DNA of 64,000 bases from an uncultured bacterium (GCA_964434115.1 CAYSSX010000004.1:175688-239687); one strand, 5' to 3'; positions 30,301 to 47,542 are shown, numbered from the stretch's first letter. Numbers and translations: made by a program. The notes: generated by a model from the letters alone, not told the origin.

Positions 30301-30410
30301 GAGTCCCTTTCTTCCGCTCTCAAACGCTTCAAGCGGAGAAGATTAAAAACCCTTCATTCCGTTGACGGTTCCGTTGTGTAATGTTTAGGTAAAGCTTCTT
30401 CATTTTCCGC

Positions 30411-31191: not shown

Positions 31192-31431
31192 ATGAACCCT
31201 TCAAAAAGCAAAGGCTGTTTGGGACAGGCCATGGTGGAGTACGCGATGATTCTCGGCATGATCGCGATGGTAGGAATGGTTGCGCTCGAAGCCCTTGGCA
31301 CCAACATGCAAAACGCATTGCGCCAATACAGCATTGGCGGTGCTGCCCGCGACGGAGGCCCCGGCGACCACATCCCGCTTCAGGGTGACACCCTGGGAAC
31401 CCGTGCGAACCCGGAAAGCCTTAGCGTATAA
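31192..31431 (+). CDS. flp: Flp/Fap-family type IVb pilin precursor
   Basis: ...KGCLGQAMVEYAMILGMIAMVGMVALEALGT... class III signal + Flp motif; RBS GGAGAAGG. Confidence 0.65.
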   Translation: MNPSKSKGCLGQAMVEYAMILGMIAMVGMVALEALGTNMQNALRQYSIGGAARDGGPGDHIPLQGDTLGTRANPESLSV

Positions 31432-31540: not shown

Positions 31541-34033
31541 TTATTCCGCAGCAGATTTATCGAAGAGGTGCTTGAGGCCATGGGTCGAGAGACCAAAACG
31601 GGTCATGAGCTGGGCCATGTGCTTGGAGTACTCGGAAAAATTTACAGGGATGGACGCGGGGTCCTGCGTCCACTTCCGGATCAGGGAAAACAAATCATTC
31701 TGCGGCTGTAAGAGTTCCAGTTCGACCCCGAGTTTTTTGGAGAGTTTGTGCAGGTAGATGCATTCCGCGATCATTTTGTCTTCCTGATTCTGCACAAATC
31801 TTGCGACACGGCTGCTCAGTTCCTGACTGAGAAACTGCGCAACCGGCCCTTTCTGAATCTCCACGTTAAAGGCCTTTGCCGTGTCCATCATCCGGTAAGC
31901 GACCGTCGCTTTCTTCTGAAACCCTGAAGCGGCAAGTTTGTGAAGCTCTTCCAGGAGACGGCGGCTTAACACGTGCTGGGCCGCGTAGCGAAACTCCGCG
32001 GGAATGGGAAGATGGATGGACCCGTAAATTTCATTGATGCGGCGGCTCTCTTCGTACACGCGTTCATAAAACTTGCTGATGCTGTCGATCTGGCGCCTTG
32101 TCAGACGGGAAATAATATTCATGCGGTCTTCAAGCACCAGTTCCTTAAGGGTAAAATAACGCTCTCCAAACCGCATATCGATTTTCTTAAAAACTTCCAC
32201 AATGTGGGAATTGTACAAATCTTCAAAGGTGGCCTGTTCCAGCGCTTCAAAATCATCTCCGCTTTCAAAAGGTTTCACGGAGCACCGGAAATCGTAAAGC
32301 CCGGTCTGGAGCGCGAGAAAAATAATATCTTTTTCCTCCAGCGTGATTTTGGAAATAATTTTGACGCGGCCGAAATTCAGGGTCAGCCCGCCGAAACTCT
32401 CCTTGCGCTGATACATCACCTGAAGATTGAAACAGTAAATATCGAGGCTTTCCCTCTGCGGGTAATAGTCCTCAAAAATCGACCCCATGGCGTAGTAGCT
32501 CACAATGTGTTCCAGCGTCGCCACGGAGGATTTCACAAGCTTTTCATAAACACCCCGGCCGTCACGGTAGGTCTCGACATTGCTTTTTGCCTTTTCCAGG
32601 CGCTGAAGGAACTCTTCCTCGTAACTCGCGCCCGTGACTTCGCGCACCAGCTGAATGGCACGCGCGGCGTACTGCAAGATCTGCACGGTTTCAATGCCTG
32701 AAAGTTCGGTAAAAAACCAGCCGCAGCTCGTGTACATGAGCATGGCATGGCGCTGCATCTCCAAAAGTTTCAGGCAAAGGGTCATCTCCGCGCTCGTGAG
32801 GTCATGCTTGCGGTGGCAGTCAAAGAAACTCTGGATACTGGGCTCGCGGCGGTCCAGCACGACTTTGATGTAATCGTCGCGGGCATCCCAGGGATTTTTT
32901 AAATACGCTGAAATGCGGTCTTCATAAACCTTTGCCAGCTCGTCCCGCAGCCAGTCAAGCGAGTCCCGGAGAGGTTTGCGCCAATTCTGATTCCACTCCG
33001 CGGGGCCGCCGCCCCGGCATCCGCAATGGTCTTTCCAGCGGCGCACGCCATGAGCACAGCTCCACGCCGTGCCTTCGTTGTTTTCACCTTCGTGAAGCCG
33101 CGCCTCAAACTCCGGGGGGTATTCTTCCAGGAATTCCCCGTAGTTGACAATCCGGTAACCCCGCGCCGGCGCCTCAACATGAGTCAGATACGCAGCGGCC
33201 CTGTCTCCAAACGCCTTGTGGTGCCCGTAAGTTTCGCCGTCCGTCGCAATGTGAATCAGCTGAGGTTTGTTCCCGTAATCCACAACCGCCCCGTCAATGC
33301 GGGACATAAAAATTTTGGCGTCAAAAAGAAGGTTTTCGAAACCCGCGGCCTTTGAAATAGGGCCGTCATAGAAAAAAATATCAATGAACTTTTCGGGGTT
33401 TGACTTCAAGAAACAGCGGTAGGGACGGCGCGGATCGATCCGGCCCGGAGTCGCATCCAGCCATTCCCCTCCGAAAGGGCGGAAGGCCTGGGCCTGATGC
33501 GGCTCAAGAATAATGAATTTTATTTTCTCTTCCACCAGGACTTCCAGCGTGGCCTCATTGCAGGCCGTTTCAGGAAGCCAGATCGCTTCCGGCTCGCGGC
33601 TGAAACGGTGCCGGAACTCGGCCACTCCCCAGCGAACCTGGGTCACCTTGTCGCGCCGGTTGGCCAGCGGCATAATCATGTGATTATAAACCTGGGCAAT
33701 CGCGTTTCCGTGGCCGTGATGCCGTTTCCGGCTCTCGTGGTCGGCTTCAATGATGCGCAGGTAGGTATCAAAATGTTTTGCTTCAAGCCAGGACATCAAA
33801 GTCGGCCCGAAATTGAAACTCATCTTCTCGAAATTATTGACGATGTCGGCGATCTTGCCGTCCGGCCCGAGGACACGGGCGCGGGAATTGGGAAGGTAGC
33901 ACTCCGAATGAATGCGTTCATTCCAGTCATGGAAAGGCGCGGCGCTCTCCTGGGGCTCAATTTCTTCGATCCAGGGATTTTCGCGGGGAGGCTGGTAAAA
34001 ATGACTATGGATGCAGAGACAGGCTTTAGTCAC
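31541..34033 (-). CDS. GH57-family glycoside hydrolase (alpha-amylase / 4-alpha-glucanotransferase-like) with a large C-terminal domain
   Basis: N-terminus CLCIHSHFYQPPRENPW... (H-x-H-x-Y-Q-P GH57 motif), 830 aa. Confidence 0.75.
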   Translation of the reverse strand: MTKACLCIHSHFYQPPRENPWIEEIEPQESAAPFHDWNERIHSECYLPNSRARVLGPDGKIADIVNNFEKMSFNFGPTLMSWLEAKHFDTYLRIIEADHESRKRHHGHGNAIAQVYNHMIMPLANRRDKVTQVRWGVAEFRHRFSREPEAIWLPETACNEATLEVLVEEKIKFIILEPHQAQAFRPFGGEWLDATPGRIDPRRPYRCFLKSNPEKFIDIFFYDGPISKAAGFENLLFDAKIFMSRIDGAVVDYGNKPQLIHIATDGETYGHHKAFGDRAAAYLTHVEAPARGYRIVNYGEFLEEYPPEFEARLHEGENNEGTAWSCAHGVRRWKDHCGCRGGGPAEWNQNWRKPLRDSLDWLRDELAKVYEDRISAYLKNPWDARDDYIKVVLDRREPSIQSFFDCHRKHDLTSAEMTLCLKLLEMQRHAMLMYTSCGWFFTELSGIETVQILQYAARAIQLVREVTGASYEEEFLQRLEKAKSNVETYRDGRGVYEKLVKSSVATLEHIVSYYAMGSIFEDYYPQRESLDIYCFNLQVMYQRKESFGGLTLNFGRVKIISKITLEEKDIIFLALQTGLYDFRCSVKPFESGDDFEALEQATFEDLYNSHIVEVFKKIDMRFGERYFTLKELVLEDRMNIISRLTRRQIDSISKFYERVYEESRRINEIYGSIHLPIPAEFRYAAQHVLSRRLLEELHKLAASGFQKKATVAYRMMDTAKAFNVEIQKGPVAQFLSQELSSRVARFVQNQEDKMIAECIYLHKLSKKLGVELELLQPQNDLFSLIRKWTQDPASIPVNFSEYSKHMAQLMTRFGLSTHGLKHLFDKSAAE

Positions 34034-34037
34034 CGGC

Positions 34038-34259
34038 TCAATACTTGTCCGTGCTCAAGAGTGAAATTTTGACGGTTTTTCCCGACCACTTCATGCTGAT
34101 CTTGTCCTCACGGGCAAGCCAGCCAAGGGCCTGATGAAAAAGGTCGGCGTTCACCGGAACGGCCTTATGCAATTTGACCGCGGTGGTTTCTCCGCTTTCC
34201 TCAAGGGCCTTGTAGATTTTGCCTGCGGTTTCGCCAATCAAATAATATTCATCCTGCAT
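34038..34259 (-). CDS. Small winged-helix protein (DUF2582-like), paralog of 47260..47481
   Basis: MQDEYYLIGETAGKIYKALE...FHQALGWLAREDKI... ; RBS GAGGTG. About 55% identical to the paralog, which has the same RBS. Confidence 0.6.
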   Translation of the reverse strand: MQDEYYLIGETAGKIYKALEESGETTAVKLHKAVPVNADLFHQALGWLAREDKISMKWSGKTVKISLLSTDKY

Positions 34260-34293
34260 GGAGCACCTCGCTTAAGTCCGGATTTCCGGACAA

Positions 34294-35877
34294 TTAATTC
34301 TCCGAGTAAACGCGGTAATCAATTCCCGGGAAAATGTTGTTTCGGCTTTCAAGACCCGCCAGCCAGCCTTCATCGACCGTGCCGCGGCGAACATCCTCAT
34401 AAAGCTTCGTAAAGTTTAGCAGATGGTCCTTGGTCCGTTTTTCCGCGTAAGGGACCATGGTTCCCGTATGCATAATAAAAGCCCAGTCGCTTGACTGCGC
34501 GAGCAGAAGTTCGCGGGCCGCCTGATTGAGCGCGCGGTTCGTAAGCCCGTCCGAGTTCCGGTAGGAGGAAGCCAGCTCCCCCATTCTCAGCGCGGCCTTA
34601 TGCAGGTGCCGGTAAATCCAGTGATTCGACCCCGAGAGCCATGTCTCCGCGTACCCTTTCCAGCCCCAGCTTGAAAAAGACGGCGTTGAGACCTGGTTCA
34701 CCGGGTACTCCCGCAGATAATCCGACGGGGTCGCCAGACGGATGGTTTTCTGGTCAAACGCGGTTTTACGGATCAGGAAATTTAAAAAATCAGGGCCTTC
34801 ATACCACCAATGCCCGTAAAGCTCCGCATCGTACGGAGCTACAATGATCGGCTTTCTTCCCAGAAAATCGTAGAGGTATTCCGCCTGTTTTTCGCGGTTG
34901 AAAATAAAATTGGCGGCATGGCTTGCGGCTTTGGCCATGGCGTGTTCACGCACATAAGGCTGTTTGTCATTCGAGGGGCCTGTGATCCGGTGGTACTTGA
35001 TACCGGTCGAAACACGCAGGCCGTCCGGCGAAATGTAGGGCTTGATGTATTCAAAGTCGAGATCAAACCCGATGTCGCGGTAAAATTCGCGGTAATCAAA
35101 ATCTCCCGGATAGCCTTCCGCCGCAGACCAGACCTGCTTGGAAGATTCCGCGTCGCGGCCAAACGCGGCCACACCCGTCGGGCAGTAAACCGGGGCAAAC
35201 ACCCCGTACTTGGGCCGGGGTGAAGCATGAAGAATCCCGTGCGTATCGGTGAGAAAATAGCGGATGCCTGATTCTTTCAAAAAGCGGTCAGCCCCGGGGT
35301 AATAACCGCATTCCGGAAGCCAGATGCCGAGCGGCTTACGCCCGAACGTTTGTTCATACTGGCTGACGGCGGTGACCACCTGTGCGCGGATGGAACCTTC
35401 GGTGCGGTTGATCAGCGGGAAAAAGCCATGCGTGGCGCCGCAGGTAATGATTTCAAGACATCCCAGGTCCTGGTATTTCCGGAACGCCTGCGTGAGGTCT
35501 CTCGCGTAACGCAGAAAGGTTTCACGGGTTTGCGTGAACTGCCAGAAATAATGAAGGGCCGTGCCATGATATTCGGGAAGGAAACGCGTGCGGTCCACTT
35601 CCTTGTTCGCAAGCTCAATAAGTTTATCGAGATGCCGGATGTAACGCTCCTGAAGCAGCGGGTCGCGCAGCATGGAAATCAAAGGCGGCGTCATGGACAT
35701 CGTGATGCGGTAAGGAACCCGGTCGCGTTCCAGGCCTTCAAACATATGGATCAGCGGGACATAAGTTTCCGTGATCGCTTCGTAGAGCCAGTTTTCTTCG
35801 AGGAAATACTCGTGTTCAGGATGGCGGACAAAAGGCAGATGCGCGTGAAGAACAATCGAGAGCAGTCCCTTTTCCAT
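34294..35877 (-). CDS. GH57-family 1,4-alpha-glucan branching enzyme
   Basis: ...LSIVLHAHLPFVRHPEHEYFLEENWLYEAITETY... GH57 branching-enzyme signature, ~527 aa. Confidence 0.85.
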   Translation of the reverse strand: MEKGLLSIVLHAHLPFVRHPEHEYFLEENWLYEAITETYVPLIHMFEGLERDRVPYRITMSMTPPLISMLRDPLLQERYIRHLDKLIELANKEVDRTRFLPEYHGTALHYFWQFTQTRETFLRYARDLTQAFRKYQDLGCLEIITCGATHGFFPLINRTEGSIRAQVVTAVSQYEQTFGRKPLGIWLPECGYYPGADRFLKESGIRYFLTDTHGILHASPRPKYGVFAPVYCPTGVAAFGRDAESSKQVWSAAEGYPGDFDYREFYRDIGFDLDFEYIKPYISPDGLRVSTGIKYHRITGPSNDKQPYVREHAMAKAASHAANFIFNREKQAEYLYDFLGRKPIIVAPYDAELYGHWWYEGPDFLNFLIRKTAFDQKTIRLATPSDYLREYPVNQVSTPSFSSWGWKGYAETWLSGSNHWIYRHLHKAALRMGELASSYRNSDGLTNRALNQAARELLLAQSSDWAFIMHTGTMVPYAEKRTKDHLLNFTKLYEDVRRGTVDEGWLAGLESRNNIFPGIDYRVYSEN

Positions 35878-35879
35878 GC

Positions 35880-37187
35880 TCAGGAACCCTTGGCTGGGCG
35901 TATCACAGGTTCAGGGCGGTAGGTTTCGCGCTGAACAACCGGCGTGATCACGCGTTCCTCAATGCCGTCGGCAGATTCCGCCTTGGCGTCAAAAACAAAT
36001 TTTCCATCGGGTAAGGCAAACCGGAAAGAAAAAGTTCCGTCCGGACGCAGCTGGATGACTTTTCCCTGAAAGGTCACTTTGGCATCCGGCTCGGTACCCC
36101 CGTAGACAATGACTTCACAGTCCAGCCAGAACCAGAACTTGCGGTCCTTGCCGGGAGGTCCTTTCGCGCCCGGACTCGACATGCTGGAAAGAAGGCCTGC
36201 CCCGGACCCGGAAGAAATATTGCCCTGAATCTTATCTTCCATCAATTTCCGGACTTCCATGGAGCTTTTTCCCGGATCAAAGCCGCCTGAGAGTGCGTAA
36301 ACCTTGTCAAAATCAATATCCATCCACTGTTCATCCAGCACATCCGACATCTGGGAACGCGGCATCAGGACCTGATTGGATTTCGCAAGGGCCAAAAACC
36401 GTCCATCTTTGTGCAGAACGCCGATCTCGACAAAATAACGCCGGTTCGGCTGTGTGTTGACATACCAGTGGTTCGTAATCCCGCCCAGATAAAGGTCATG
36501 AAAAACGCCTTCTTTTTCAGTCGTATCATAAACGCGGAGGATAACGCACACGTCTTCCCAGGATCCGCCCAGGCGCGCACGCGCGTTTTCCACATAATCC
36601 CGCTGCAATTCCCAATAGGCATAAGCCCAGCAAGGGTCGCGGACCATAAAATAAATCATGTTGTCGCCGTAATTCTGGGGAAGCTCCGCGGGCCGGGCTT
36701 CATGCACCACCGGCGCGGGCGGAGATTTTGGCTTCTTGCGCAAAGACACCCGGACAGCGCCGAGAAGATCCAAAGCCTTCTGCCTTTTTAATCCGGCGGA
36801 TATCGCCGATGACTTGACGCGCATTTTTTGCGGTGCCGCAGGCTTAACAGCGGTCTTTTGCAGAGACTTTTTGGCCGCGGGCATAGATTTTTTCTTCGCG
36901 GTTTCCGGTTTCGTTTTCAGCTTGGGAGCGGACACCGCTTTTTTCACTTTCGGAGAAACCGCCGGCTTCAAAACCGTTTTACGGACTGAAGACGTTTTAA
37001 AACTGAGTTTCACCGGAGCTGCGGAACGGACTTTTGCTGGAGAGGCCTTTTTAAGAGGAGGCTTTTTGCGGACTTGCGGCTTGACTGCTTTTTTGCTCTT
37101 GGTAACAACCGCTCTTTTCACCTGCTTTTTAGCAGGCTTGCGAGTGACATTTTTGGCTTTCTTTTTTGTCTTTCCGGCACGCACCAT
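35880..37187 (-). CDS. DUF4912 domain protein with a ~170 aa Lys/Ala/Pro-rich (histone H1-like) N-terminal tail
   Basis: ...YFMVRDPCWAYAYWEL... DUF4912 core; RBS AGGAAA. Confidence 0.7.
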   Translation of the reverse strand: MVRAGKTKKKAKNVTRKPAKKQVKRAVVTKSKKAVKPQVRKKPPLKKASPAKVRSAAPVKLSFKTSSVRKTVLKPAVSPKVKKAVSAPKLKTKPETAKKKSMPAAKKSLQKTAVKPAAPQKMRVKSSAISAGLKRQKALDLLGAVRVSLRKKPKSPPAPVVHEARPAELPQNYGDNMIYFMVRDPCWAYAYWELQRDYVENARARLGGSWEDVCVILRVYDTTEKEGVFHDLYLGGITNHWYVNTQPNRRYFVEIGVLHKDGRFLALAKSNQVLMPRSQMSDVLDEQWMDIDFDKVYALSGGFDPGKSSMEVRKLMEDKIQGNISSGSGAGLLSSMSSPGAKGPPGKDRKFWFWLDCEVIVYGGTEPDAKVTFQGKVIQLRPDGTFSFRFALPDGKFVFDAKAESADGIEERVITPVVQRETYRPEPVIRPAKGS

Positions 37188-37334
37188 ACAACAATTTCCT
37201 AAGGGGGGTCATGAAAAGTTGGTCAGCCTTTCTTTGACTGTGCCTACTATACTGCAACGAACGTGCCTTTTAAATAAAAACTTTCCAAAACTCTTGCCGA
37301 CGGTCCCTCCCCTTCGAAAGGGCTCCCCAAGACC

Positions 37335-39821
37335 TTAACGGGCCTTTGGCTTGGAAAAAGGGATTTTCCAGATCTCCCGGGCGTATTCGGTAATCGTCCG
37401 GTCACTTGAAAATTTGCCGGAACGGGCCACGTTCAGAATGGCCTTTTTCGTCCATTCCTCGGGGTTGAGGTAAGCGGCGGAGATTTTCTGCTGAATGGCG
37501 CAATAGGCATCAAAATCCGCGCAAACCAGAAAAGGGTCGGAGTGCATGAGGTTATCGATAAGCGGCATGAACATCCCCGGATCCACGGGAGAAAAAAAGC
37601 CGCTTTTGAGCATTTTGAAGATCTCTGCCAATACCGGAGAGCGGGCAATAAAATCCTGCGGGACATACCCTTTTTCCTGAAGGGCCCGGACTTCATCCGC
37701 CTTAAGGCCAAAAGTGAAAATATTCTCCGCGCCTACGGCCTTGGCCATTTCGATGTTCGCACCATCCAGCGTTCCCACGGTCAAAGCGCCATTGACCATA
37801 AACTTCATGCATCCGGTTCCGGAAGCTTCCGTCCCCGCCGTGGAAATTTGCTCTGAAAGATCACTGGCCGGAAAAACGTTCTCCGCCAGGGAAACCCTGT
37901 AATTCTCCAGGAAAATAATTTTCATCTTATCGCCGATGGCTTTGTCGTGATTCACCACATCCGCAATATTGGAGATAAATTTGATTATGAGTTTCGCCAT
38001 GGCGTAACCCGGCGCCGACTTGCCCGCGAATAAAAAAGTCCTCGGCACGTGCGGCTTCTTGCTGTTTTCCTTGATCTTCAGATACTCGGAAATAATGTAG
38101 AACGCAAAAAGGGTCTGCCGCTTGTATTCGTGGATGCGTTTGATCTGAACGTCAAAAATAGATTCCGGGTTCACACGGACCCCGTTCAAATCAAGAATCG
38201 TCTTCGCGAAATCCGCCTTGTTGGCCTGTTTGATCTTTGCCCATTTTTCGCGGAACGCCGCGTCATCTTTATGCGGGGTAAGCTTTTCAAGCTCGTAAAG
38301 ATCCGTGACCCAGCTGCCGCCGATGGTTTCATCGATCAGGGAGGAAAGTCTCGTATTGGCGTTTTTCAGCCACCGCCGCTGCGTGATGCCGTTGGTTTTG
38401 TTGTTGAATTTCTCCGGATAAAATTCGTGGAAATCCCGGAAAAGGTCGGTTTTAAGAAGCGTGGAATGCAGTTCCGAAACGCCGTTGACGGAATGACTGC
38501 CAACGATCGCGAGGTAAGCCATCCGCACGCGCTTCTGATTCCCTTCTTCAATAATCGACATCCGCTTCAAGCGCGCCGTGTCGCCGGGATAATGGTTCGC
38601 GACCTCGCGCAAAAAACGGGCGTTGATTTCATAAATCAACTGCATGTGGCGGGGCAGGAGCTTTTCAAAAAGCGGCGCGGCCCAGCACTCCAAAGCTTCG
38701 GGCATCACCGTGTGGTTGGTATAGGCAAAGGTGCGCACGGTCGTGTCCCAGGCCGTTTCCCAGTCCAGACGCTCTTCATCCAGAAGAACGCGCATGAATT
38801 CCACCACCGCGAGCGCGGGATGCGTATCGTTAAGCTGAATGGCCGCCTTTTCGGGAATCTCGCGAAGGTCCGTGTTCTCCGCCTTGAAGCGGCGGATAAT
38901 ATCCGTGACCGCCGCGGCCGTAAAAAAGTACTCCTGTTTCAGACGGAGTTCACGCCCCATCGAATTGGCATCATTCGGATAAAGAACCTTGGAGATGTTT
39001 TCTGAAAACATCTTGTTGTAGACGGCCTTTTCATAGTCCCCGTGGTTGAAATACTCGAAATCAAATTCTTCGGAACCCCGGGCGGACCAAAGACGGAGCG
39101 TGTTAACCACATCGTTCTGGTATCCGGGCACCGGCGTGTCATAAGGCATGGCGACGACGTCCTGGGTGTTCCGCCACTCCACGCAAAGTTTTCCGTTCTT
39201 GTCGTGGTACATGTACGTGTCGCCGTAGAAACGGACGGTCACGGCATATTCCGGTCTCGGAAACTCCCAAGGGTTGCCGTGCTTGAGCCATTCATCGGGA
39301 AATTCCACCTGATGGCCTTCGACAATTTTCTGATTAAAAATGCCGTAGTCATACCGGATCCCGTAACCGTGCCCGGGAATCCCCAGCGTGGCCATGGAAT
39401 CGAGAAAACACGCGGCCAAACGGCCAAGCCCGCCGTTACCAAGACCCGCGTCCGGTTCTTCGTCGCGGATAAATTCAAAATCCAGATTCATTTCCTTCAG
39501 CGCTTCCTTGGCCGGCTGAAGCAGGTTGAGATTAAGCATGTTGTTGCTCAGAAGACGTCCGATCAAAAACTCCATCGAAAGATAATAAACTCGCTTCGCA
39601 TTTTTCTTGTGATATTCCTGCTGGGTTTTGATCCAGCGTTCCACGATGCGGTCGCGGACAGCAATGGAAAGCGCCATAAAATCATCATGCGTCGTGGTGG
39701 TGAATCGGTCTTTGGCGAGCTGGTAAAAAAGGCTGGAGCTGAAGGAGGTCCGCATGCCCTCTTTGGTCATGTCTTTGTAAACGACTTCCCAGGGTTCCTG
39801 AGCGGGCTTATGCTTTGACAT
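37335..39821 (-). CDS. glgP: Glycogen/maltodextrin phosphorylase (GT35)
   Basis: 828 aa; ...EFPDEWLKHGNPWEF..., ...TNHTVMPEALE..., PLP-site region ...EASGTGCMKFMVNGALTVGTLDGANIE... Confidence 0.95.
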   Translation of the reverse strand: MSKHKPAQEPWEVVYKDMTKEGMRTSFSSSLFYQLAKDRFTTTTHDDFMALSIAVRDRIVERWIKTQQEYHKKNAKRVYYLSMEFLIGRLLSNNMLNLNLLQPAKEALKEMNLDFEFIRDEEPDAGLGNGGLGRLAACFLDSMATLGIPGHGYGIRYDYGIFNQKIVEGHQVEFPDEWLKHGNPWEFPRPEYAVTVRFYGDTYMYHDKNGKLCVEWRNTQDVVAMPYDTPVPGYQNDVVNTLRLWSARGSEEFDFEYFNHGDYEKAVYNKMFSENISKVLYPNDANSMGRELRLKQEYFFTAAAVTDIIRRFKAENTDLREIPEKAAIQLNDTHPALAVVEFMRVLLDEERLDWETAWDTTVRTFAYTNHTVMPEALECWAAPLFEKLLPRHMQLIYEINARFLREVANHYPGDTARLKRMSIIEEGNQKRVRMAYLAIVGSHSVNGVSELHSTLLKTDLFRDFHEFYPEKFNNKTNGITQRRWLKNANTRLSSLIDETIGGSWVTDLYELEKLTPHKDDAAFREKWAKIKQANKADFAKTILDLNGVRVNPESIFDVQIKRIHEYKRQTLFAFYIISEYLKIKENSKKPHVPRTFLFAGKSAPGYAMAKLIIKFISNIADVVNHDKAIGDKMKIIFLENYRVSLAENVFPASDLSEQISTAGTEASGTGCMKFMVNGALTVGTLDGANIEMAKAVGAENIFTFGLKADEVRALQEKGYVPQDFIARSPVLAEIFKMLKSGFFSPVDPGMFMPLIDNLMHSDPFLVCADFDAYCAIQQKISAAYLNPEEWTKKAILNVARSGKFSSDRTITEYAREIWKIPFSKPKAR

Positions 39822-39912
39822 TGTTTACCTTTCTTCCTCGAAGGAAATTCACGGGGGAAGATTAACAGATTTAAAAGGAACCATTCAAGAATGAATTCTT
39901 AGCACCTGGAGT

Positions 39913-41889
39913 CTAACCCTCGTGCAAAAAGAAAACCGCCGAAAGCGGCGGAAGATCCAGATGCAAAGAATGCGGCTGATGATGCCACGGCACGGATTCC
40001 CCGGGGCGTCCGCCCTGGTTGCCGCTGCCGCTGCCTCCGTAATCATCCGCGTCGCTGTTGAAAATCTCCCGGTACCATCCGTCCCACGGAACCCCCACAC
40101 GGTACCCCAGCCGGGGAACGGGCGTCATGTTAAAAACACACACCACCGGTTTGCTGCGCCCTTTCGCCCAGCGCACAAAACTCACCACGCTGGAATCCCG
40201 GTCGGAAAAATCAATCCACTGAAATCCCTCCGGCGAAAAATCCAGCTCATGAAATGCGGCGAGATCGCGGTGGCAGCGGTTTAAATCGCGGACAAGACGG
40301 CCCCAGGCCTTAAAAATAGGCACGGGCGCAAGATGCCAATCCATGGAATGGCGGCAATTCCACTCCGCCGGCTGGCCGACATCCGCGGTCATAAATAAAA
40401 GCTTTTTTCCCGGGTGCGCGTACATATAAGAAAGGAAGAGCCTCGCGTTGGCCCAGCGCTGCCAGTCATCGCCCGGCATTTTTTCAAGAAGCGATTTTTT
40501 TCCATAAACCACTTCGTCATGCGAAACCGGAAGAATAAAGTTCTCGGTGAACGCGTAGAGCATGGAAAAGGTCAGCATGTCCTGATGAAACCGGCGGTGC
40601 ACGCATTCTTTGGAAAAATAATCCAGCGTGTCATGCATCCAGCCCATGTTCCATTTCATGCTGAAGCCGAGCCCACCCGCGTAGGTCGGCCTTGAAACAC
40701 CGGTCCAGGCGGTGGACTCCTCGGCAATCGTCAAGACTCCGGGATACCGCTCATGCACCACTTCATTGAACCGTTTGAGAAAACTGATCGCCTCAAGGTT
40801 CTCATTGCCGCCGTATTGATTCGGCTGCCACTCTCCCGGCGCGCGGGAATAATCCAGGTAAATCATGGAAGCCACCGCATCCACACGCAGTCCGTCGAGG
40901 TGATACTGATCCAGCCAGAACAGCGCGTTGGACATAAGAAAGTTCCGGACCTCGTTACGTCCGTAATCAAAAACCAGGGTTCCCCACTCCCGGTGCTCGC
41001 CCTTTTTCCAATTGTCATAGGCGTAAATCTGGCGGCCGTCAAAATCCGCGAGGCCGTGAGCGTCTTTTGGAAAATGCGCGGGAACCCAGTCCAGGATCAC
41101 GCCCAGCCCATGACTGTGGCAGGTGTCCACAAAAAACATAAAATCTTCCGGAGATCCAAAACGGCTGGTCGGCGCAAAGTAGCTGATGACCTGATAACCC
41201 CAGGATTCATCCAGCGGATGCTCGCTGATCGGCATCAATTCAAGGTGCGTATAACCCCGCTCAATCGCAAAAGGAATAAGTCTTTCGGCCAGTTCCCGGT
41301 AAGTCAGAAAGTCCTCTCCCTTTTCTCCGGTCCGCATCCAGGAACCCAAATGCACTTCATAAATGGAGACAGGCCCTTCCAAAGGGTTGCGCGCCGCGCG
41401 GGTTTTCATCCAGGCGTCATCGTTCCATTTGAACTTTTGAAGGGCTGCCACCACCGAAGCGGTCCGGGGACGGACTTCGGTCTGAAAGGCATAGGGATCG
41501 GATTTAAAAAAAACATGCCCTTCCGGCGTCTCGACCGCGAACTTATAAAAGGTTCCTTCCACGAGACCGGGAATAAAGCCGTCCCAAAAACCCGACCCGG
41601 GAAGGCGGCGAAGGGGGTTCGCTCCGGACTTCCACAGGTTAAAATCACCCACCACACTGACAGAACGGGCGTTCGGCGCCCAGAGCGAAAAATAAGTTCC
41701 CGGTTTTTTTTCCGTCACGCAGACATGCGCGCCCAGTTTCCGGTAACTATCGAAATGGTTTCCCTCGCCCAGCAAATGGAGGTCAAAACCCGTCAGCCTT
41801 GTTTCTTCCAAAAGAGGAAGGGTTTTGGAGACAGCCGCCGCTTTCGGGCGCCTTACGGCACGTGCTGGGGGACGCGTTTTTCTTTTCAC
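39913..41889 (-). CDS. glgB: 1,4-alpha-glucan branching enzyme (GH13_9)
   Basis: ...GFDLHLLGEGNHFDSYRKLGAH..., ...LGVILDWVPAHFPKD..., ...YDYGRNEVRNFL...; the GGTACC hexamers at 40069..40110 are coding coincidences (GY/WY codons). Confidence 0.9.
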   Translation of the reverse strand: MKRKTRPPARAVRRPKAAAVSKTLPLLEETRLTGFDLHLLGEGNHFDSYRKLGAHVCVTEKKPGTYFSLWAPNARSVSVVGDFNLWKSGANPLRRLPGSGFWDGFIPGLVEGTFYKFAVETPEGHVFFKSDPYAFQTEVRPRTASVVAALQKFKWNDDAWMKTRAARNPLEGPVSIYEVHLGSWMRTGEKGEDFLTYRELAERLIPFAIERGYTHLELMPISEHPLDESWGYQVISYFAPTSRFGSPEDFMFFVDTCHSHGLGVILDWVPAHFPKDAHGLADFDGRQIYAYDNWKKGEHREWGTLVFDYGRNEVRNFLMSNALFWLDQYHLDGLRVDAVASMIYLDYSRAPGEWQPNQYGGNENLEAISFLKRFNEVVHERYPGVLTIAEESTAWTGVSRPTYAGGLGFSMKWNMGWMHDTLDYFSKECVHRRFHQDMLTFSMLYAFTENFILPVSHDEVVYGKKSLLEKMPGDDWQRWANARLFLSYMYAHPGKKLLFMTADVGQPAEWNCRHSMDWHLAPVPIFKAWGRLVRDLNRCHRDLAAFHELDFSPEGFQWIDFSDRDSSVVSFVRWAKGRSKPVVCVFNMTPVPRLGYRVGVPWDGWYREIFNSDADDYGGSGSGNQGGRPGESVPWHHQPHSLHLDLPPLSAVFFLHEG

Positions 41890-41956
41890 AACAGAGCCCT
41901 CACAGGCTTCACTAGGTTTTAGGGGGGAATAGGATGAGAGCTTCGTAATTTTTGTA

Positions 41957-43054
41957 TTATGTTACAGGCATATGCACTTTCGGAAGAGAAAAAATAAATT
42001 TCGATCCCTTCCCCGCTTTGCTTTCAACACGAATACTGCCGCCATGAGCGGTCATAATGCCTTTACAAATGGCAAGGCCAAGCCCCGTTCCCTTTTCGCC
42101 TCCGGCCGGAGTATGCCCAAATTGCTCGAATTTATTGAAAAGCTTTTCAAGGCCTTCCTCGGGAATGCCCGCGCCCGTATCGGAAACACTGCACTCAATC
42201 GCGCCGCCCCGGTCCTCAATGCCGACACGGATTGTCCCCTGCGGGGTGAACTTCAGCGCGTTGCTCAGAAGATTGATAAAGACCTGCGAAATTTTTTCGC
42301 GGTCCGCTTCCACAAGAATGCCGGGATCCGGATAAACCTGCTGAAGTTCCAGACCGCGTGAAGCGATACTCTGCTTAAAACTCGCGCACACCTCCTGCGC
42401 CAGCGCCGCCATATTGAAGCTGGTTTTTTTAAGCTTCATTTTTCCGATTTCGATCTTGGTGAGGTCAAGCAGGTCATTGATCAAAAGGTTGAGGCGCTCC
42501 ATGTTTTTAAGCACCATGTCCAGAAAGAAGCGCTGATCTTCGGAAACCGTTCCAAGGATCCCCTCCAGGATCTGACGCAGCCCTTCGATCGAGACTGTAA
42601 GCGGCGAGCGCAGCTCATGCACCACCATGCCCATAAATTCCTCGCGGAGTTCCTGGATTTTTCTGCGTTCAAGGGCATAGCGCAGGACCCTTTCAAAAAG
42701 CTCCGGCGACATCTGGTCCTTCATCATGTAATCCTGCGCTCCTCCGGCCACCGCATCCGCGGCAATGTTTTCATCGGTAATGCCGGAACAAACAACGATG
42801 GGAACGCCTGCCGCCGACGGCTGAAGCCGGCGCAGGGTGTCCAGGCCCCGGCTGTCGGGAAGCTGAAGGTCCAGCAAAATCAGATCGAAGTGTTTCTGCG
42901 TGAGGAGTTCCAGCGATTTTTCCAGCGACGGGGCCCGCACAACGCGGTAATGGTTCACTGATTTACCAAGCCTTGACAGGAGTTTACCCATAATCAACGC
43001 ATCATCATCGTCATCTTCCACAAGCAGAACTTCAAAATCATGCTGATCCATCAT
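41957..43054 (-). CDS. Hybrid sensor histidine kinase (N-terminal receiver + HisKA + HATPase_c)
   Basis: ATG 43054 overlaps the stop of the upstream RR; ...VLLVEDDDDDALIMGKLLS...MVVHELRSPLT..., G-boxes. Confidence 0.85.
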   Translation of the reverse strand: MMDQHDFEVLLVEDDDDDALIMGKLLSRLGKSVNHYRVVRAPSLEKSLELLTQKHFDLILLDLQLPDSRGLDTLRRLQPSAAGVPIVVCSGITDENIAADAVAGGAQDYMMKDQMSPELFERVLRYALERRKIQELREEFMGMVVHELRSPLTVSIEGLRQILEGILGTVSEDQRFFLDMVLKNMERLNLLINDLLDLTKIEIGKMKLKKTSFNMAALAQEVCASFKQSIASRGLELQQVYPDPGILVEADREKISQVFINLLSNALKFTPQGTIRVGIEDRGGAIECSVSDTGAGIPEEGLEKLFNKFEQFGHTPAGGEKGTGLGLAICKGIMTAHGGSIRVESKAGKGSKFIFSLPKVHMPVT

Positions 43055-43509
43055 GGTCTCTCTTTGGGAAGTGAAACAATTCCAAACCAATAGGCATAAA
43101 TAATTTTGACGATTTCGACAAGCTCTTCAAACGTGACGGGTTTACGGATAAAGGAATTGCTGCCCAGCCCGTAAGTGTTGCCGATATCGTCTTCGGACTC
43201 GGAAGTCGTAAAAACCAGAACCGGGATTTTTTGAAACCTGGCATCGCGCTTGATTTCACGCAGCGCCTCACGGCCGTCTTTCCGGGGCATGTTTAGATCC
43301 AAGAGCATCAGGTCCGGCGCGGGAAACCTTTCAGCGCCGGAAAAAACACCGCGGTTTTCCAAATAATCCAGAAGCGCCTCGCCATCCACCGCGCGGAAAA
43401 GCCTCACGTCAAGGCGGGCCTTTTTGAAGGCCTTCTCGACCAGCATAAAATCATCGTCATCATCTTCCGCCATCAAAACAACAGGCAAAGCATGAGGTTC
43501 ATTCGGCAT
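43051..43509 (-). CDS. Single-domain response regulator
   Basis: ...VVLMAEDDDDDFMLVEKAFK...LLDLNMPRKDG...; RBS AAGGAG. Confidence 0.85.
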   Translation of the reverse strand: MPNEPHALPVVLMAEDDDDDFMLVEKAFKKARLDVRLFRAVDGEALLDYLENRGVFSGAERFPAPDLMLLDLNMPRKDGREALREIKRDARFQKIPVLVFTTSESEDDIGNTYGLGSNSFIRKPVTFEELVEIVKIIYAYWFGIVSLPKERP

Positions 43510-43518
43510 CGGTACTCC

Positions 43519-46500
43519 TTAGGGTGCCAGAGGAAGCGTAAAAATAAAAGCAGCGCCTTCTCCCGGTTTGCTTCGAGCGGTAATTTCACCGCCGTGGCGA
43601 TGGACGATTTTCTGGCATATGGAAAGGCCAATGCCTGTCCCTTCGTATTCCGATCGCGTGTGAAGTCTCTGAAAAGGAACAAAAATCCGGTCCAGGTATT
43701 TTTCATCAAACCCGATTCCGTTGTCCTTGATTCTAATTTCCTGGAAACCATTGTTCAAGGACACTCCTTCAATCTCCACGCACGGCACTTCTCCCGGCCG
43801 GCTGAATTTAAGCGCGTTTCCAAGCAGGTTCAGGAACAGCTGACTGACCTGCCCGGGATCGGCCATCACGGGAAGAAGTGTTTTCACGCTGATCCGGGCC
43901 TCGGTTTCAAGGATGCGGATTTCAAGGTCTGACAAGACTTCCGCCACCAGGGCGTTAAGGTCAACCTTCTCAAAGGGCTTGATCTTACGCATGACCCTGG
44001 AATAGGTCAGCAGGTCTTCGATGAGCTGGCGCATGCGCATCGCCCCTCCGACAATCCGGTTCAGATAGTCGTGCGCTTCATCATCCAGCCGGGATTTCTC
44101 TTTCTCTTCCAGCAGCTTGGAAAAAGAAATGATTTTTCTCAGCGGCTCCTGAAGGTCATGCGACGCCACACAGGCAAACTCTTCCAGTTCTTTATTGGAG
44201 CGCGCCAGTTCAAGGGATTTTTGCTGGAGCTGCTGCACGGCATTTCTTCTCTCGGTAATGTCTTTGACCTGCGCCACAAAAACAAGCGGCGCTCCCTGCT
44301 CATCGCGCACAAGAGATACGGCAAGGAGGCCCCAGACATAATGGCCCTTTTTATGGATATACCGTTTTTCCATGTGGTAAAAATCGATTTTCCCGGCAAG
44401 GAGCTGATTGACATTTTCCAGATCCGCATTCAAGTCGTCCGGATGAGTGATTTTTTGAAAAGTCGTTTTTAAAAGCTCTTCCTCCGAGTAGCCCAGAATC
44501 CCGCAAAGCGAACGGTTCACTTCCAGCCAGCGGCCGTCAATCCCCACAAGAGCCATGCCGATCGCGGAATGCGTAAAGGCCTCGCGGAAGCGTTCCTCAC
44601 TCTGCCGGAGTGCGATCTCGGTCTTTTTTCTTTCGGTAATGTCCTGGGAAATCCCGAGAAGGTAAAGCGGCTGGTTGTTGTCATCATAAACCGGGACTTT
44701 GATGGTATGAAGGTAACGCTCGCCCTGGTTATGGCTTTCGATTTTTTCGGAAGGAATATCCAGCGGCTTTCCGGAATCAAAAACTTCCTGGTCTTTGGCC
44801 CTGAAAAAATCCGCCTGTTCTTTGGGAAAAAAATCATAGTCCGTTTTTCCGATCACATCTTCCGCCTTCCAGCCCAGAATTTTTTCCGCGGTCGTATTCC
44901 AAAGTTCAAACATTCCAAAAAGTTCAGGTTTCGCGCTTTTGACAAACACCGAAACCGGCAGATTGTCGATCATGCTTTTCAGAAAAGTCCGGTTTTGACG
45001 AAGCGCTTGCTCCGTCTTCCGGAAATCAGAAATATCGGTGATCGTTCCCAAATACCCCTTGAGTTTGCCGCCCTTGTCTAAAACCGGAATAGCGGTTCCG
45101 AGCGCCCAGCGGACCTCTCCCTCCGAAGTTAGAACGCGCCCATCCATCACCAGGGGCCCGCCGCTTTTCAGCGCTTCTGCCCAGGCCCGAAGAACCTTTC
45201 CGCGGTCTTCCGGATGAACCGCCTGGATCCATCCATTGCCCATCATTTCCTGGTAAGAACGGCCCGCAATTTGAAGGTAGCGCTCATTGGCGAAAAAGCA
45301 GCGCCCCATGTCGTCGGTTTCAAAAATTCCAACAGGGGCATTCGTCACCAGGGTCCGGAAACGGTTTTCGCTCTCAAGAAGGGCTTCGGTCCGTTCCTGA
45401 ACGGTTTTGCGGATCACTCTTTCGCGGCTGGTCATAAGAGAAACATACTGCGAAATCATAAGGACAAAGAAAAGCACACTCCAGCAGGCCACCCAAGGCA
45501 TCCAGGAATTGATTGACCGCAAATAAGCGGCAGACGGCACACAGACAAACTCCAGGACCCGGTCGCCGATCCTCACCGTCTCTGAATAAAAAAACGGGCT
45601 ACGCGCAGCAGGCTGGCCCTGAGAAATCGGAGTCTGCCCCGCCAGCAGGGCTTCCGCATTGTAGTAATAAAGAAACTGTTTCTCCCGCGGATCCGTCTTA
45701 TCATAAATCAGCATGTTGATGGCCTTCCGCTCAGGCCGCACAAAAGTTTCTTCAAGGATGGCGCCGAGGTAGAAGGTACCCATCACAAACCCGCTAAGAC
45801 CGGCCTCTTTCTGATCCTCAGTGTCAAGCGGGACGCCCCCTTTATAAATGGGGTTTAAAATAACCAGTTTGAAATTATGCTCAGCATCATCAAAGCGCAA
45901 AAGGGGCGCCACGGTTCCCAGGCTTCCGCTTCGCGCAATTCGCCGCATGGCTTCATGACGGGTGGGATCGCTCGATACGTCAAACCCGAGGCGGTGTTTA
46001 TTGTCTTCAAAAGGAACCGTAAAAAAAATAGGGAAATAGCGGTCCTTGGCTGCGATTTCTTCGGGTTTGCCCTCCCGGTCTTTCTGATAGAAACGATAGC
46101 CTTCCAGTCCGCCGGCCCTTGCCTGCTGTTCGAAACTCTCCCTTTCCGCGCCGGAGACAAGCGGAAGCCAATCCATAGCTTTGACGCTTTTGTTCGCGGC
46201 AATACTTTCCCCGGCAAAGATGCGGAACTCATCCCTGTCGACCTGGCTGGAGCCTTTGTAAAAGGCTTTTAGGGCATTCATGACCTGAAGGTCTGCATCC
46301 ACATAGCGGCGGAAAAGAGTAATCCGGTCCTGGGCATCAGAACTGAACTGCATATAAAAACTCTTCTGCTGCTCCGCCAGAAGAATGTAATAAGTTTGCG
46401 CGGCCAGCGTCACGCCAAAAACAAAAACAAAAAACTGCGGCATCATACGGCTTCCTAAACACCAGGATTCGTACACGAGAAAAATACCCACGAGTACAAA

Positions 46501-47076
46501 ACCCAATGCCGTGTGGAAAGCCACGAGAGTAAAGAAGGCCCAGATAGAAGAACCATGCCCGCCGCTGAGGTAGCCGATCATGGAAGCACTGCCCAAGGCA
46601 AAAAGAGCGGTCCCAATGCCGCCGGTCAGAAAATGCCTGCGGGAGGCCTTGCTCCGGTCTGAAATTAAAAACGCCAGGCAAATAAGACAGAAGCAAAGCG
46701 CCGTTGTCGGCGCCATCCGCACCGGCTGAGGACTGCAGAGCGCGGCCCAAGCAGGAAGCAGCGCATCGTTGATCCCGGTTTTGGCATGAAAAAGATATTC
46801 CGCGAGCGTGAGAGCGCCCACAAAGCCCGGCACGCAGGAAAAGACCGTGTAAAAAATTCTTTTTTGCAAGGCGGCGGTAAGGACTGCGGCTCCCGTAAAA
46901 ACAAAGCAAAGCGCGGTATTGGGATGCATGTGGGCAAAAGCCGGGTTGATCTGAGTCAGCACCTCCAAATGGAAAATCCATCCGAACAGAGCCGTCAATC
47001 CAAGAAGAGTGCAAAAAGAACCGGCCGTAAGGCGCGCGCGGTTCAGACCTTTCACATCACGCATTGATTGCAGCAT
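43519..47076 (-). CDS. Large membrane sensor histidine kinase (multi-TM N-terminus, periplasmic sensor, 3-4 PAS domains, HisKA, HATPase_c)
   Basis: ~1185 aa; repeated PAS segments, ...VASHDLQEPLRKI... H-box; probable start ATG ~47076 (alternative 47064). Confidence 0.85.
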   Translation of the reverse strand: MLQSMRDVKGLNRARLTAGSFCTLLGLTALFGWIFHLEVLTQINPAFAHMHPNTALCFVFTGAAVLTAALQKRIFYTVFSCVPGFVGALTLAEYLFHAKTGINDALLPAWAALCSPQPVRMAPTTALCFCLICLAFLISDRSKASRRHFLTGGIGTALFALGSASMIGYLSGGHGSSIWAFFTLVAFHTALGFVLVGIFLVYESWCLGSRMMPQFFVFVFGVTLAAQTYYILLAEQQKSFYMQFSSDAQDRITLFRRYVDADLQVMNALKAFYKGSSQVDRDEFRIFAGESIAANKSVKAMDWLPLVSGAERESFEQQARAGGLEGYRFYQKDREGKPEEIAAKDRYFPIFFTVPFEDNKHRLGFDVSSDPTRHEAMRRIARSGSLGTVAPLLRFDDAEHNFKLVILNPIYKGGVPLDTEDQKEAGLSGFVMGTFYLGAILEETFVRPERKAINMLIYDKTDPREKQFLYYYNAEALLAGQTPISQGQPAARSPFFYSETVRIGDRVLEFVCVPSAAYLRSINSWMPWVACWSVLFFVLMISQYVSLMTSRERVIRKTVQERTEALLESENRFRTLVTNAPVGIFETDDMGRCFFANERYLQIAGRSYQEMMGNGWIQAVHPEDRGKVLRAWAEALKSGGPLVMDGRVLTSEGEVRWALGTAIPVLDKGGKLKGYLGTITDISDFRKTEQALRQNRTFLKSMIDNLPVSVFVKSAKPELFGMFELWNTTAEKILGWKAEDVIGKTDYDFFPKEQADFFRAKDQEVFDSGKPLDIPSEKIESHNQGERYLHTIKVPVYDDNNQPLYLLGISQDITERKKTEIALRQSEERFREAFTHSAIGMALVGIDGRWLEVNRSLCGILGYSEEELLKTTFQKITHPDDLNADLENVNQLLAGKIDFYHMEKRYIHKKGHYVWGLLAVSLVRDEQGAPLVFVAQVKDITERRNAVQQLQQKSLELARSNKELEEFACVASHDLQEPLRKIISFSKLLEEKEKSRLDDEAHDYLNRIVGGAMRMRQLIEDLLTYSRVMRKIKPFEKVDLNALVAEVLSDLEIRILETEARISVKTLLPVMADPGQVSQLFLNLLGNALKFSRPGEVPCVEIEGVSLNNGFQEIRIKDNGIGFDEKYLDRIFVPFQRLHTRSEYEGTGIGLSICQKIVHRHGGEITARSKPGEGAAFIFTLPLAP

Positions 47077-47194
47077 CCTGATTTTCCACTCTCTTTTAAA
47101 ACACTCATGACGCTTTGGGATACAGCTCCGCCGCGCGAGAAAACTCATTTTTTTATCGGCTTTATAAGGTTTGAACTAACGCTGCATTTAGAAG

Positions 47195-47232
47195 AAAAAA
47201 AAAGCCCCCTGCCGTTTAAAACGGCAGAGGGC
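47195..47232 (-). terminator. Rho-independent terminator (GCCCTCTGCCGT-TTTAA-ACGGCAGGGGGC followed by T9 on the minus strand)
   Basis: Downstream of the wHTH gene 47260..47481. Confidence 0.7.
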
Positions 47233-47259
47233 CGGATCCCCATCAAAAGCAGAAGGTTT

Positions 47260-47481
47260 TTAGACGCCTGAAGTCAGAAGTGAGACCTTGACGCCCTTGC
47301 CTTGCTTTGCGACATTGATTTTGTCTTCCCTCGCAAGCCAGCCAATGGCCTGGTTAAAGAGAGCCGTGTCTTCGACACCGACTTCTTTCTGAAGTTTCGA
47401 GGGCGTCAGAGCGCCTTGTTTTTCAAGGATCTGAAAAATTCTTCCCGCTGTTTCACCGATGAAATAATAATTTTCCTGCAT
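47260..47481 (-). CDS. Small winged-helix protein (DUF2582-like), paralog of 34038..34259
   Basis: MQENYYFIGETAGRIFQILEK...FNQAIGWLAREDKI...; RBS GAGGTGA. The ORF-track extension to 47736 is unsupported. Confidence 0.6.
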   Translation of the reverse strand: MQENYYFIGETAGRIFQILEKQGALTPSKLQKEVGVEDTALFNQAIGWLAREDKINVAKQGKGVKVSLLTSGV

Positions 47482-47542
47482 AAACTCACCTCGCGTTTGA
47501 AAGTTCAAACATAGGTTCATTATAGGCCTGTAAAGACGGCTG

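Follow-up and report, generated by a model that had tools for sequence, protein, structure and literature searches.

Two DUF2582 winged-helix paralogs in a bacterial glycogen gene cluster and the recurrent, facultative link of their family to alpha-glucan genes

Two small genes on the minus strand of a 64,000-nucleotide stretch of DNA from an uncultured bacterium (GCA_964434115.1, CAYSSX010000004.1:175688-239687; the whole stretch is called the window below) encode 73-residue winged helix-turn-helix (wHTH) proteins of the family DUF2582, and each stands beside genes of alpha-glucan metabolism. We call the gene at 34038..34259 copy A and the gene at 47260..47481 copy B. We are highly confident that A and B are DUF2582 paralogs whose association with glycogen genes is non-random. 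The association between DUF2582 and alpha-glucan genes is genuine and recurrent across genomes, and it is also facultative; the finding is a guilt-by-association lead. The family itself is already known, with solved structures since 2010, and it is the glycogen context that is new: we found no paper linking DUF2582 to glycogen genes or to any pathway in the literature that we could search, and this adjacency is, as far as we know, the family's first lead to a function that is concrete and testable.

Recurrent linkage of DUF2582 to alpha-glucan genes

An earlier note on this DNA had placed the two paralogs at these positions, quoted their shared protein motifs and guessed that they were winged-helix proteins of DUF2582 (PF10771). 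Both open reading frames (ORFs) are present there on the minus strand, the motifs are correct, and a hidden Markov model search bore out the guess: A scores 61.7 bits (E 7.7e-17, model positions 1-63) and B 58.6 bits (E 7e-16, positions 2-63), well above the gathering score of 24.2 bits and over nearly the whole of the 65-position model. By BLASTP, A and B are identical at 40 of 71 positions (56%; E 9e-28), and no third DUF2582 copy was found in a search of the window. The ribosome-binding site is also shared, as had been claimed, with GCGAGGTG lying 5-6 nt 5′ of the ATG of both genes. When A and B are compared with their orthologs at a related locus, L001, divergence amounts to 0.11-0.16 at non-synonymous sites and has reached saturation at synonymous ones (0.73-0.76), and therefore A and B are real genes under strong purifying selection. 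NCBIfam has no model for either protein. A phage or anti-phage defence origin of these genes was rejected, since the DUF2582 proteins have no matches in PHROGs or PADLOC at E <= 0.01. The closest named homologs of the DUF2582 proteins, and of the GH57/DUF3536 protein encoded next to A, come from Candidatus Omnitrophota metagenome-assembled genomes (MAGs), which suggests that the host bacterium belongs to the Omnitrophota.

The neighbourhood survey covered 160 loci found with a DUF2582 profile, 80 of them in GTDB species genomes and the other 80 in metagenomes. These were probed first with the glucan proteins of the window and afterwards with other glycogen proteins that Pfam had identified in the loci; only 41 of the 80 metagenome loci have at least 4 kb of flank. 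An alpha-glucan gene is directly adjacent to DUF2582 in 14 of the 160 loci (7/80 genome and 7/80 metagenome), and in every positive locus it lies no more than 571 nt away and on the same strand. No fewer than four phyla and four unrelated gene arrangements are represented among the positives, and glucan-linked copies occupy at least three separate branches of a neighbour-joining tree. Relative to a background of 1-2%, which is assumed and not measured, 14-15 positives among 160 give a binomial p <= 1e-6, and four independent arrangements among about 12 clades give p ~7e-5, both uncorrected for phylogeny. Adjacency in at least four arrangements, far above chance, means that DUF2582 homologs do have conserved neighbourhoods with glycan genes, and the repeated link proposed from the two copies alone thus extends to several phyla, including an archaeon.

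The arrangements differ widely between lineages. Transcription along the minus strand of the window runs through genes for a PEGA-domain protein, a GT2-like glycosyltransferase, a GH13-like protein, B, a histidine kinase, a receiver, a receiver-kinase hybrid, GlgB, GlgP, DUF4912, a GH57 branching enzyme (GH57BE), A and the GH57/DUF3536 protein, so that A does lie between two GH57 genes and B beside a GT2-like/GH13-like set, all on one strand, as earlier described. The loci L001/L002 (77% identical to A), of which L001 is the nearest two-copy relative, retain this order minus the two-component genes, as GT2 - GH13-like - DUF2582 - GlgB - GlgP - DUF4912 - GH57BE - DUF2582 - GH57/DUF3536. Five further loci (L005-L007, L012 and L013) have DUF4912 - GH57BE - DUF2582 - GH13-like - GlgP, and the GH57BE - DUF2582 pair is kept in L014, L097 and L098; the set DUF4912 - GH57BE - DUF2582 is retained in all Omnitrophota relatives that were recovered through DUF2582 itself. 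Pairing with GH57/DUF3536 is found in L001-L004, L097, L120 and L165. In L120 and L165 the order is GlgB - DUF2582 - GH57/DUF3536, with an extra GH13-like gene between the last two in L079, while the order DUF2582 - GlgB - GH57/DUF3536 occurs in L068 (Aminicenantes) and L095. Locus L175 reads GDE - GlgP(DUF3417) - DUF2582 - two GT5-like synthases - GH57BE, with a related set in the Planctomycetota MAG L061, and a Thermoplasmatota archaeon (L086) has GlgP - tandem 2x DUF2582 - GT5-like - GT - GDE. DUF2582 thus stands beside glycogen genes independently in Omnitrophota, Planctomycetota-type, Aminicenantes-type and Thermoplasmatota genomes, and one lineage keeps two paralogs.

Several individual loci merit separate mention. 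The archaeal gene (L086, 9426-9830) encodes a 135-residue protein of two tandem DUF2582 domains, that is, a covalently linked 'dimer' within a glycogen cluster. At L010 (9706-13855) three DUF2582 genes are interleaved with genes for phosphofructokinase, pyruvate kinase and a small CBM48 protein. Such stand-alone CBM48/AMPK-type glycogen-binding proteins, of 90-98 residues, are present in the carbon-storage clusters of L010, L011 and L179; the one in L179 (14910-15182) lies beside GlgA and GH57BE at a locus that has no DUF2582 gene. Finally, one and the same DUF2582 protein, P0040, is encoded beside GlgB - GH57/DUF3536 in L095 and beside an integrase, a Prim-Pol and a weak TerL-like match in L094 (640-9817). 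The L094 element, the one prophage-like context encountered, appears to be integrated at the tRNA-Arg(TCG) gene that precedes the DUF2582 gene; the same tRNA is found in L068.

Transcription units of the two copies

Copy A starts 34 nt past the stop codon of the GH57BE gene, and its own stop lies 4 nt before the GTG start of the GH57/DUF3536 gene, a gap that measures 7 nt in L001. It is an internal gene of the operon DUF4912 - GH57BE - A - GH57/DUF3536, with probable translational coupling to its downstream neighbour.

On the other hand, B has signals of its own. A sequence scan identified a predicted promoter, TTGACA-16-TATAAT, at 47519..47546 on the minus strand, which matches the sigma-70 consensus at 12 of 12 positions and is the sole such match in the 20 kb scanned, all others reaching 9/12. 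The TGA stop codon of the GH13-like gene falls inside its -35 hexamer, and the L001 ortholog of B has TTGACG/TATAAT at the same position despite diverged flanks. Downstream is a strong putative intrinsic terminator (47203..47233, minus strand) with a 14-pair stem containing 9 GC pairs, followed by a T-run, and an equivalent hairpin and T-run is found after the L001 ortholog. The stem begins 26 nt past the stop codon of B (47233-47203), and not at the 10 nt given before. The earlier note had placed B at the distal end of the GT2-GH13 operon; B is indeed downstream of that gene set, but because of its own 12/12 promoter and terminator it is predicted to be a separate, self-contained monocistronic unit and not merely the operon's end. 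Strong expression of B is probable, judging from the promoter, and its ribosome-binding site is a strong one. Read by eye, many distant DUF2582 genes are also first in their unit and have a near-consensus promoter.

A second candidate promoter precedes the operon of A. A sigma-54-type element, GGCACG-N4-TTGCA, occurs at 37253..37267 on the minus strand, about 66 nt upstream of the DUF4912 start; the window contains no other exact match, the orthologous spacer of L001 preserves the element (6721-6735), and we infer that it acts as a promoter. The Planctomycetota locus L061 also has an exact match (9543-9557), some 450 nt upstream of its DUF2582 gene. We saw no enhancer-binding protein in the glycogen cluster. 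There is also a conserved block upstream of glgP, where a sigma-70 promoter reading is weak.

Each copy has a perfect 7-2-7 palindrome immediately 5′ of its ribosome-binding site. The 5′ leader of B contains GTTTGAACTTTCAAAC directly before the ribosome-binding site (47495..47510), and the L001 ortholog has a palindrome of different sequence in the same place; we think this element probably forms a 5′ hairpin in the mRNA. Between the GH57BE gene and A lies GTCCGGAAATCCGGAC (34276..34291), which is not conserved in L001. A common operator formed by the two was rejected, since their sequences are different, neither recurs in the window and neither is conserved in L001. A DUF2582-specific hairpin in the 5′ untranslated region (5′ UTR) was likewise rejected for the family as a whole: across 158 unique DUF2582 leaders folded from positions -50 to -9, the median z-score is about 0 relative to shuffled sequences, and glgP is hairpin-preceded as well. 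Among Acidobacteriota, the leaders of five loci (L142, L132, L113, L114 and L037) have a common hairpin, for example GUUCUGGAAACCCGGAAU, about 10-40 nt upstream of the DUF2582 start. Its stem is compensatory between loci (UUCUGG/CCGGAA, UCCUG/CAGGA and UUCUCG/CGAGAA) and lies directly before the ribosome-binding site GGAAAGGAG, and it may represent a clade-specific 5′-UTR element.

Fold and candidate roles of the DUF2582 proteins

The AlphaFold2 model of A (predicted local distance difference test score, pLDDT, 82.6) has the winged-helix topology H1-S1-H2-H3-wing, with helices at residues 2-22, 27-33 and 38-50, strands at 24-26, 54-59 and 62-67, and a hairpin wing spanning 54-67. This is the fold of the PDB entries 2L01 and 2L02: in a Foldseek search with the model, 2L01 ranked first (template-modelling score, TM, 0.78) and 2L02 fifth (TM 0.75), and a profile of 24 relatives matches both entries (E 3e-12 for 2L02, 4e-9 for 2L01). 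Beyond these two, nearly all of the closest solved structures are regulators that bind DNA: the ArsR-family proteins HlyU, SqrR, SrnR and BigR, together with MarR and with AspA, which binds centromeres. Invariance is seen at G9, T11, A12, G13, I15 and L19 (helix 1), at G46-W-L-A-R-E51, where helix 3 ends, and at L67.

The architectures of relatives point in a similar direction. The PF10771 family is of modest size, with 1873 clusters at 50% identity (E <= 1e-3), and includes many proteins with tandem 2x to 4x DUF2582 repeats, which would fit a dimer as the working unit, as well as proteins of about 350 residues that combine two DUF2582 domains with a coiled coil. One relative (P0135) has a receiver domain followed by a C-terminal DUF2582, the layout of a response regulator and the sole such fusion among the 150 representatives listed, and another (P0165) joins a YbaK-type tRNA-editing domain to DUF2582. 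Among the top 150 cluster representatives, no fewer than eight have highly basic, K/A/P-rich N-terminal tails resembling histone H1; the basic-tailed relatives include P0132, P0141, P0154, P0156, P0174, P0182, P0183 and P0194. Taken together, the predicted fold, the receiver fusion, the basic tails and the tandem repeats favour a dimeric nucleic-acid-binding module.

The explanation that we tentatively prefer, while giving it a little less than an even chance, is that A and B are small, dimeric winged-helix regulators that bind nucleic acid and act on the adjacent glucan genes. A small and probably dimeric protein of this kind would adjust the expression of its neighbours, with A being made in step with the GH57 enzymes around it and B being made from its own strong promoter, possibly under autoregulation. 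As the protein has no sensor domain, any signal would need to be conveyed by the abundance of the DUF2582 protein, by a partner protein or by DNA or RNA structure. The idea of a dedicated regulator, which the earlier note had raised, remains plausible. Its other suggestion, a carbohydrate-binding adaptor, has no support, as the proteins are plain wHTH domains without features resembling a carbohydrate-binding module. To our knowledge, the control of GH57-based bacterial glycogen clusters is essentially unstudied, and a small factor encoded inside such clusters would be a natural entry point to it.

A and B can be compared with several groups of described proteins. The Bacteroides proteins BVU3908 (2L01) and BT2368 (2L02), with structures solved by nuclear magnetic resonance (NMR), belong to the same Pfam family, are likewise single domains of about 70-80 residues, and share with A and B the motifs IG-x-x-AGK-(I/V)-W and GWL-(A/L)-RE-(D/N)-K. 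However, they are only about 30% identical to A and B, and no glycogen context has been reported for them. Regulators of the ArsR/SmtB (HlyU, SqrR, BigR, SrnR) and MarR families are dimers that often regulate adjacent genes, and they have the core wHTH fold in common with DUF2582 (Foldseek TM 0.66-0.75), but DUF2582 lacks their extra N- and C-terminal dimerization helices and their sensory site, and its chain ends right after the wing. Neither family includes A or B by profile: no HTH_5 or HTH_20 Pfam match was found at E <= 1, with only a weak profile match to HlyU (E ~0.02), and B scores 13.5 bits on PF01047, for which the cut-off is 24.6, in a chain of 73 residues as against the MarR architecture of about 140. 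The receiver fusion P0135 resembles OmpR/NarL-type response regulators in carrying DUF2582 in the output position after a receiver, whereas A and B are stand-alone proteins without a receiver domain and the DUF2582 wHTH lies outside the Trans_reg_C fold family. The basic-tailed relatives resemble linker histone H1 and bacterial H1-like tailed proteins, including PhaF and PhaM, in combining a winged helix with a K/A/P-rich basic tail, although this is an analogy only; A and B have no such tail, and their genes lie in an island of glycogen and polyphosphate storage-polymer genes. TrmB-family sugar-responsive regulators control archaeal and bacterial maltodextrin and glycolysis genes through a large sugar-binding effector domain. 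Like DUF2582, they are winged-helix proteins encoded beside genes of alpha-glucan and sugar metabolism, but DUF2582 lacks the effector domain and neither A nor B has a Pfam TrmB match.

A number of observations weigh against a role as local regulators of glucan genes. About 90% of the sampled homologs have no glucan neighbours, and DUF2582 is missing from the surroundings of all four GH57/DUF3536 loci sampled in other Omnitrophota and in an Elusimicrobia MAG. No shared operator was found among the promoter regions of the cluster or in L001, in a comparison made without a dedicated motif-discovery tool, and since similar 5′ hairpins precede glgP, they seem to be a feature of mRNAs in general. 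GWLARE, the motif of the recognition helix, does not vary between phyla in which the neighbouring genes are wholly different, and thus a common partner or ligand, or a structural role, fits better than lineage-specific operators. The proteins are also not notably basic, with a net charge of 0 for A, +1 for B and a median of +1 in the sampled homologs. Furthermore, the 2012 NMR study of 2L01 and 2L02 by Eletsky et al. reportedly describes a wHTH that mediates homodimerization and in which DNA-contact residues are unconserved.

The scarcity of glucan neighbours sets the scope of the association. A family-wide linkage to glucan genes was rejected, as most homologs lie among unrelated housekeeping genes: clustering of the neighbours at the 80 genome loci recovered a UvrD-like helicase, LeuD/LeuB, PlsX/FabD/FabG/L32, TPR proteins, RecX, PilT, ROK and tRNA synthetases, with TPR proteins in Planctomycetota, RecX and PilT in Acidobacteriota, and Crp and HU/RuvX also seen. 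At 17 loci from gut Gastranaerophilales (Melainabacteria), the DUF2582 gene is consistently divergent from a gene for a UvrD-like helicase of about 1290 residues, a second kind of conserved pairing in the family, and at one Gastranaerophilales locus (L083, 1494-5372) the DUF2582 gene is duplicated. An obligate partnership with GH57/DUF3536 was rejected on the basis of the four reverse look-ups; one of the loci without DUF2582, L179, has a complete cluster of GH57/DUF3536, GH77, DUF4912, GH57BE, CBM48 and GlgA. Because these four loci lack it, DUF2582 is dispensable for the GH57/DUF3536 enzymes. It is a facultative accessory of glycogen clusters, neither a component that defines them nor a family devoted to them.

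Among the other explanations, the one that survives best, although we consider it unlikely, is that a DUF2582 dimer is an accessory that binds protein: it would attach to a co-encoded glucan protein or to the glycogen particle and serve as an assembly, activity-modulating or tethering factor. GH57BE, GH57/DUF3536, DUF4912 and the GH13-like enzyme would be the candidates for binding. A comparable logic is known from PhaM and PhaF, which link polyhydroxybutyrate granules to the nucleoid. The close coupling of A to the GH57/DUF3536 gene, in the window and in L001, speaks for such a role, as do the near-neutral charge of both copies and the small or hydrophobic nature of the conserved residues, with G9xxxG13 in helix 1 and G46-W-L-A in helix 3 suiting helix packing or interfaces. 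The consensus promoter of B suggests the abundance of a structural protein over that of a low-copy repressor, and the small CBM48-only proteins in comparable clusters (L010 and L179) indicate that glycogen clusters do carry small non-enzymatic accessories. The doubt about DNA binding that the NMR authors reportedly raised would also fit this role. However, there is no constant enzyme partner, the neighbour being GH57BE, GH57/DUF3536, GlgB, a GT5-like synthase or GlgP, and most DUF2582 members have no glucan genes nearby at all. The receiver-domain and basic-tail fusions, moreover, point to nucleic acid, and the structural neighbours of DUF2582 bind DNA.

It is also possible, if improbable, that DUF2582 is a small wHTH protein of general function, nucleoid-associated or global, without a particular part in glucan metabolism, its position reflecting lineage inheritance together with chance insertion near highly expressed genes. 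This would account for the heterogeneous neighbourhoods across the family and for helices 1 and 3 being highly conserved whatever the context; the basic-tailed variants resemble nucleoid proteins, the gene often has its own promoter, and GH57 clusters of related organisms do without it. What chance insertion explains poorly is that distant phyla show at least four distinct gene orders, in all of which the genes are immediate neighbours on one strand, and that the duplication has been retained in the window as well as in L001, each copy next to a glucan enzyme. The three copies of L010, among genes for phosphofructokinase, pyruvate kinase and a CBM48 protein, also point to carbon metabolism. 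Very improbable, finally, is a split response regulator in which DUF2582 is the detached output domain for the stand-alone receiver (43509-43051) and the CHASE/PAS kinase controls the glucan genes: the P0135 fusion exists, kinase, receiver-only and hybrid-kinase genes lie directly between B and glgB, and L005 and L006 have a PAS kinase and a stand-alone receiver 6-9 kb downstream, but the two-component block is wholly absent from L001, the closest two-copy relative, two-component genes are so common that proximity is weak evidence, and only a single fusion appears among the 150 representatives listed.

A broader reading can be imagined, and we regard it as doubtful: DUF2582 could be a hitherto unrecognized glycogen-cluster factor common to bacteria and archaea, either as a dedicated minimal transcription regulator or as a winged-helix dimer linking glycogen enzymes or particles to nucleic acid, by analogy with PhaM and PhaF. 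If so, the retained duplication would provide separate copies, one suited to the GH57 enzymes and the other to the GH13-like enzyme.

The surrounding storage-polymer genes

All genes of the cluster lie on the minus strand and were assigned with Pfam, and in part with NCBIfam. Upstream of B are the genes for the PEGA-domain protein (52158-50680), the GT2-like glycosyltransferase (50683-49037), whose GT2-like Pfam matches fall under the gathering score, and a divergent GH13-like protein of 495 residues with a weak Alpha-amylase match (47543..49030), which directly precedes B and has orthologs flanking DUF2582 in L001, L005-L007, L012 and L013. A three-gene two-component block (47148-41957) then separates B from glgB and comprises a CHASE/PAS histidine kinase (47148-43519), the stand-alone receiver and a receiver-histidine-kinase hybrid (43090-41957), the block having been assigned with Pfam and NCBIfam. 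The block is missing at this position from L001 and L002, and L001 has only a spacer of 265 nt there; either the glycogen cluster acquired the block by insertion in one lineage or L001 lost it, and the block is context, not a conserved part of the cluster.

Downstream of the block lie the genes for the GH13 branching enzyme GlgB, with CBM48, alpha-amylase and C-terminal domains (39913..41889), and for the glycogen phosphorylase GlgP (37335..39821; PF00343, 1101 bits). The operon of A follows, with the DUF4912 protein as its first gene (35880..37187), the GH57 glycogen branching enzyme (Glyco_hydro_57 and BE_C) directly upstream of A (34294..35877) and the 830-residue GH57 and DUF3536 protein directly downstream (31541..34033). 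NCBIfam branching-enzyme models match GH57BE with scores under their cut-offs. A Pontibacter homolog of GH57/DUF3536 is reported to behave as a 4-alpha-glucanotransferase (PMC11206854). A non-coding RNA or riboswitch in the cluster was rejected, given that neither Rfam nor tRNA matches were found in the window. In all Omnitrophota loci that we examined (L001, L005, L012-L014, L098 and L179), including the one that lacks DUF2582, the DUF4912 gene stands directly before that of the GH57 branching enzyme, and this looks like a tighter, equally uncharacterized partnership.

Further downstream, in the same orientation, are genes for a histidine phosphatase, a ROK-family (gluco)kinase, Ppx/GppA and polyphosphate kinase 1 (25614-30908, minus strand), the order of which is kept in L001 and L004. 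Since glycogen and polyphosphate genes are thus co-oriented in one region, they form a single storage-polymer island. Convergent with the glucan operon is a 79-residue ORF (31192-31431, plus strand) that has an MVEY-type N-terminus resembling Flp/Fap pilins and a weak Pfam Flp_Fap match (19.1 bits, with a cut-off of 32.2). It is located in a gap of 632 nt, the counterpart of which in L001 is only about 150 nt long.

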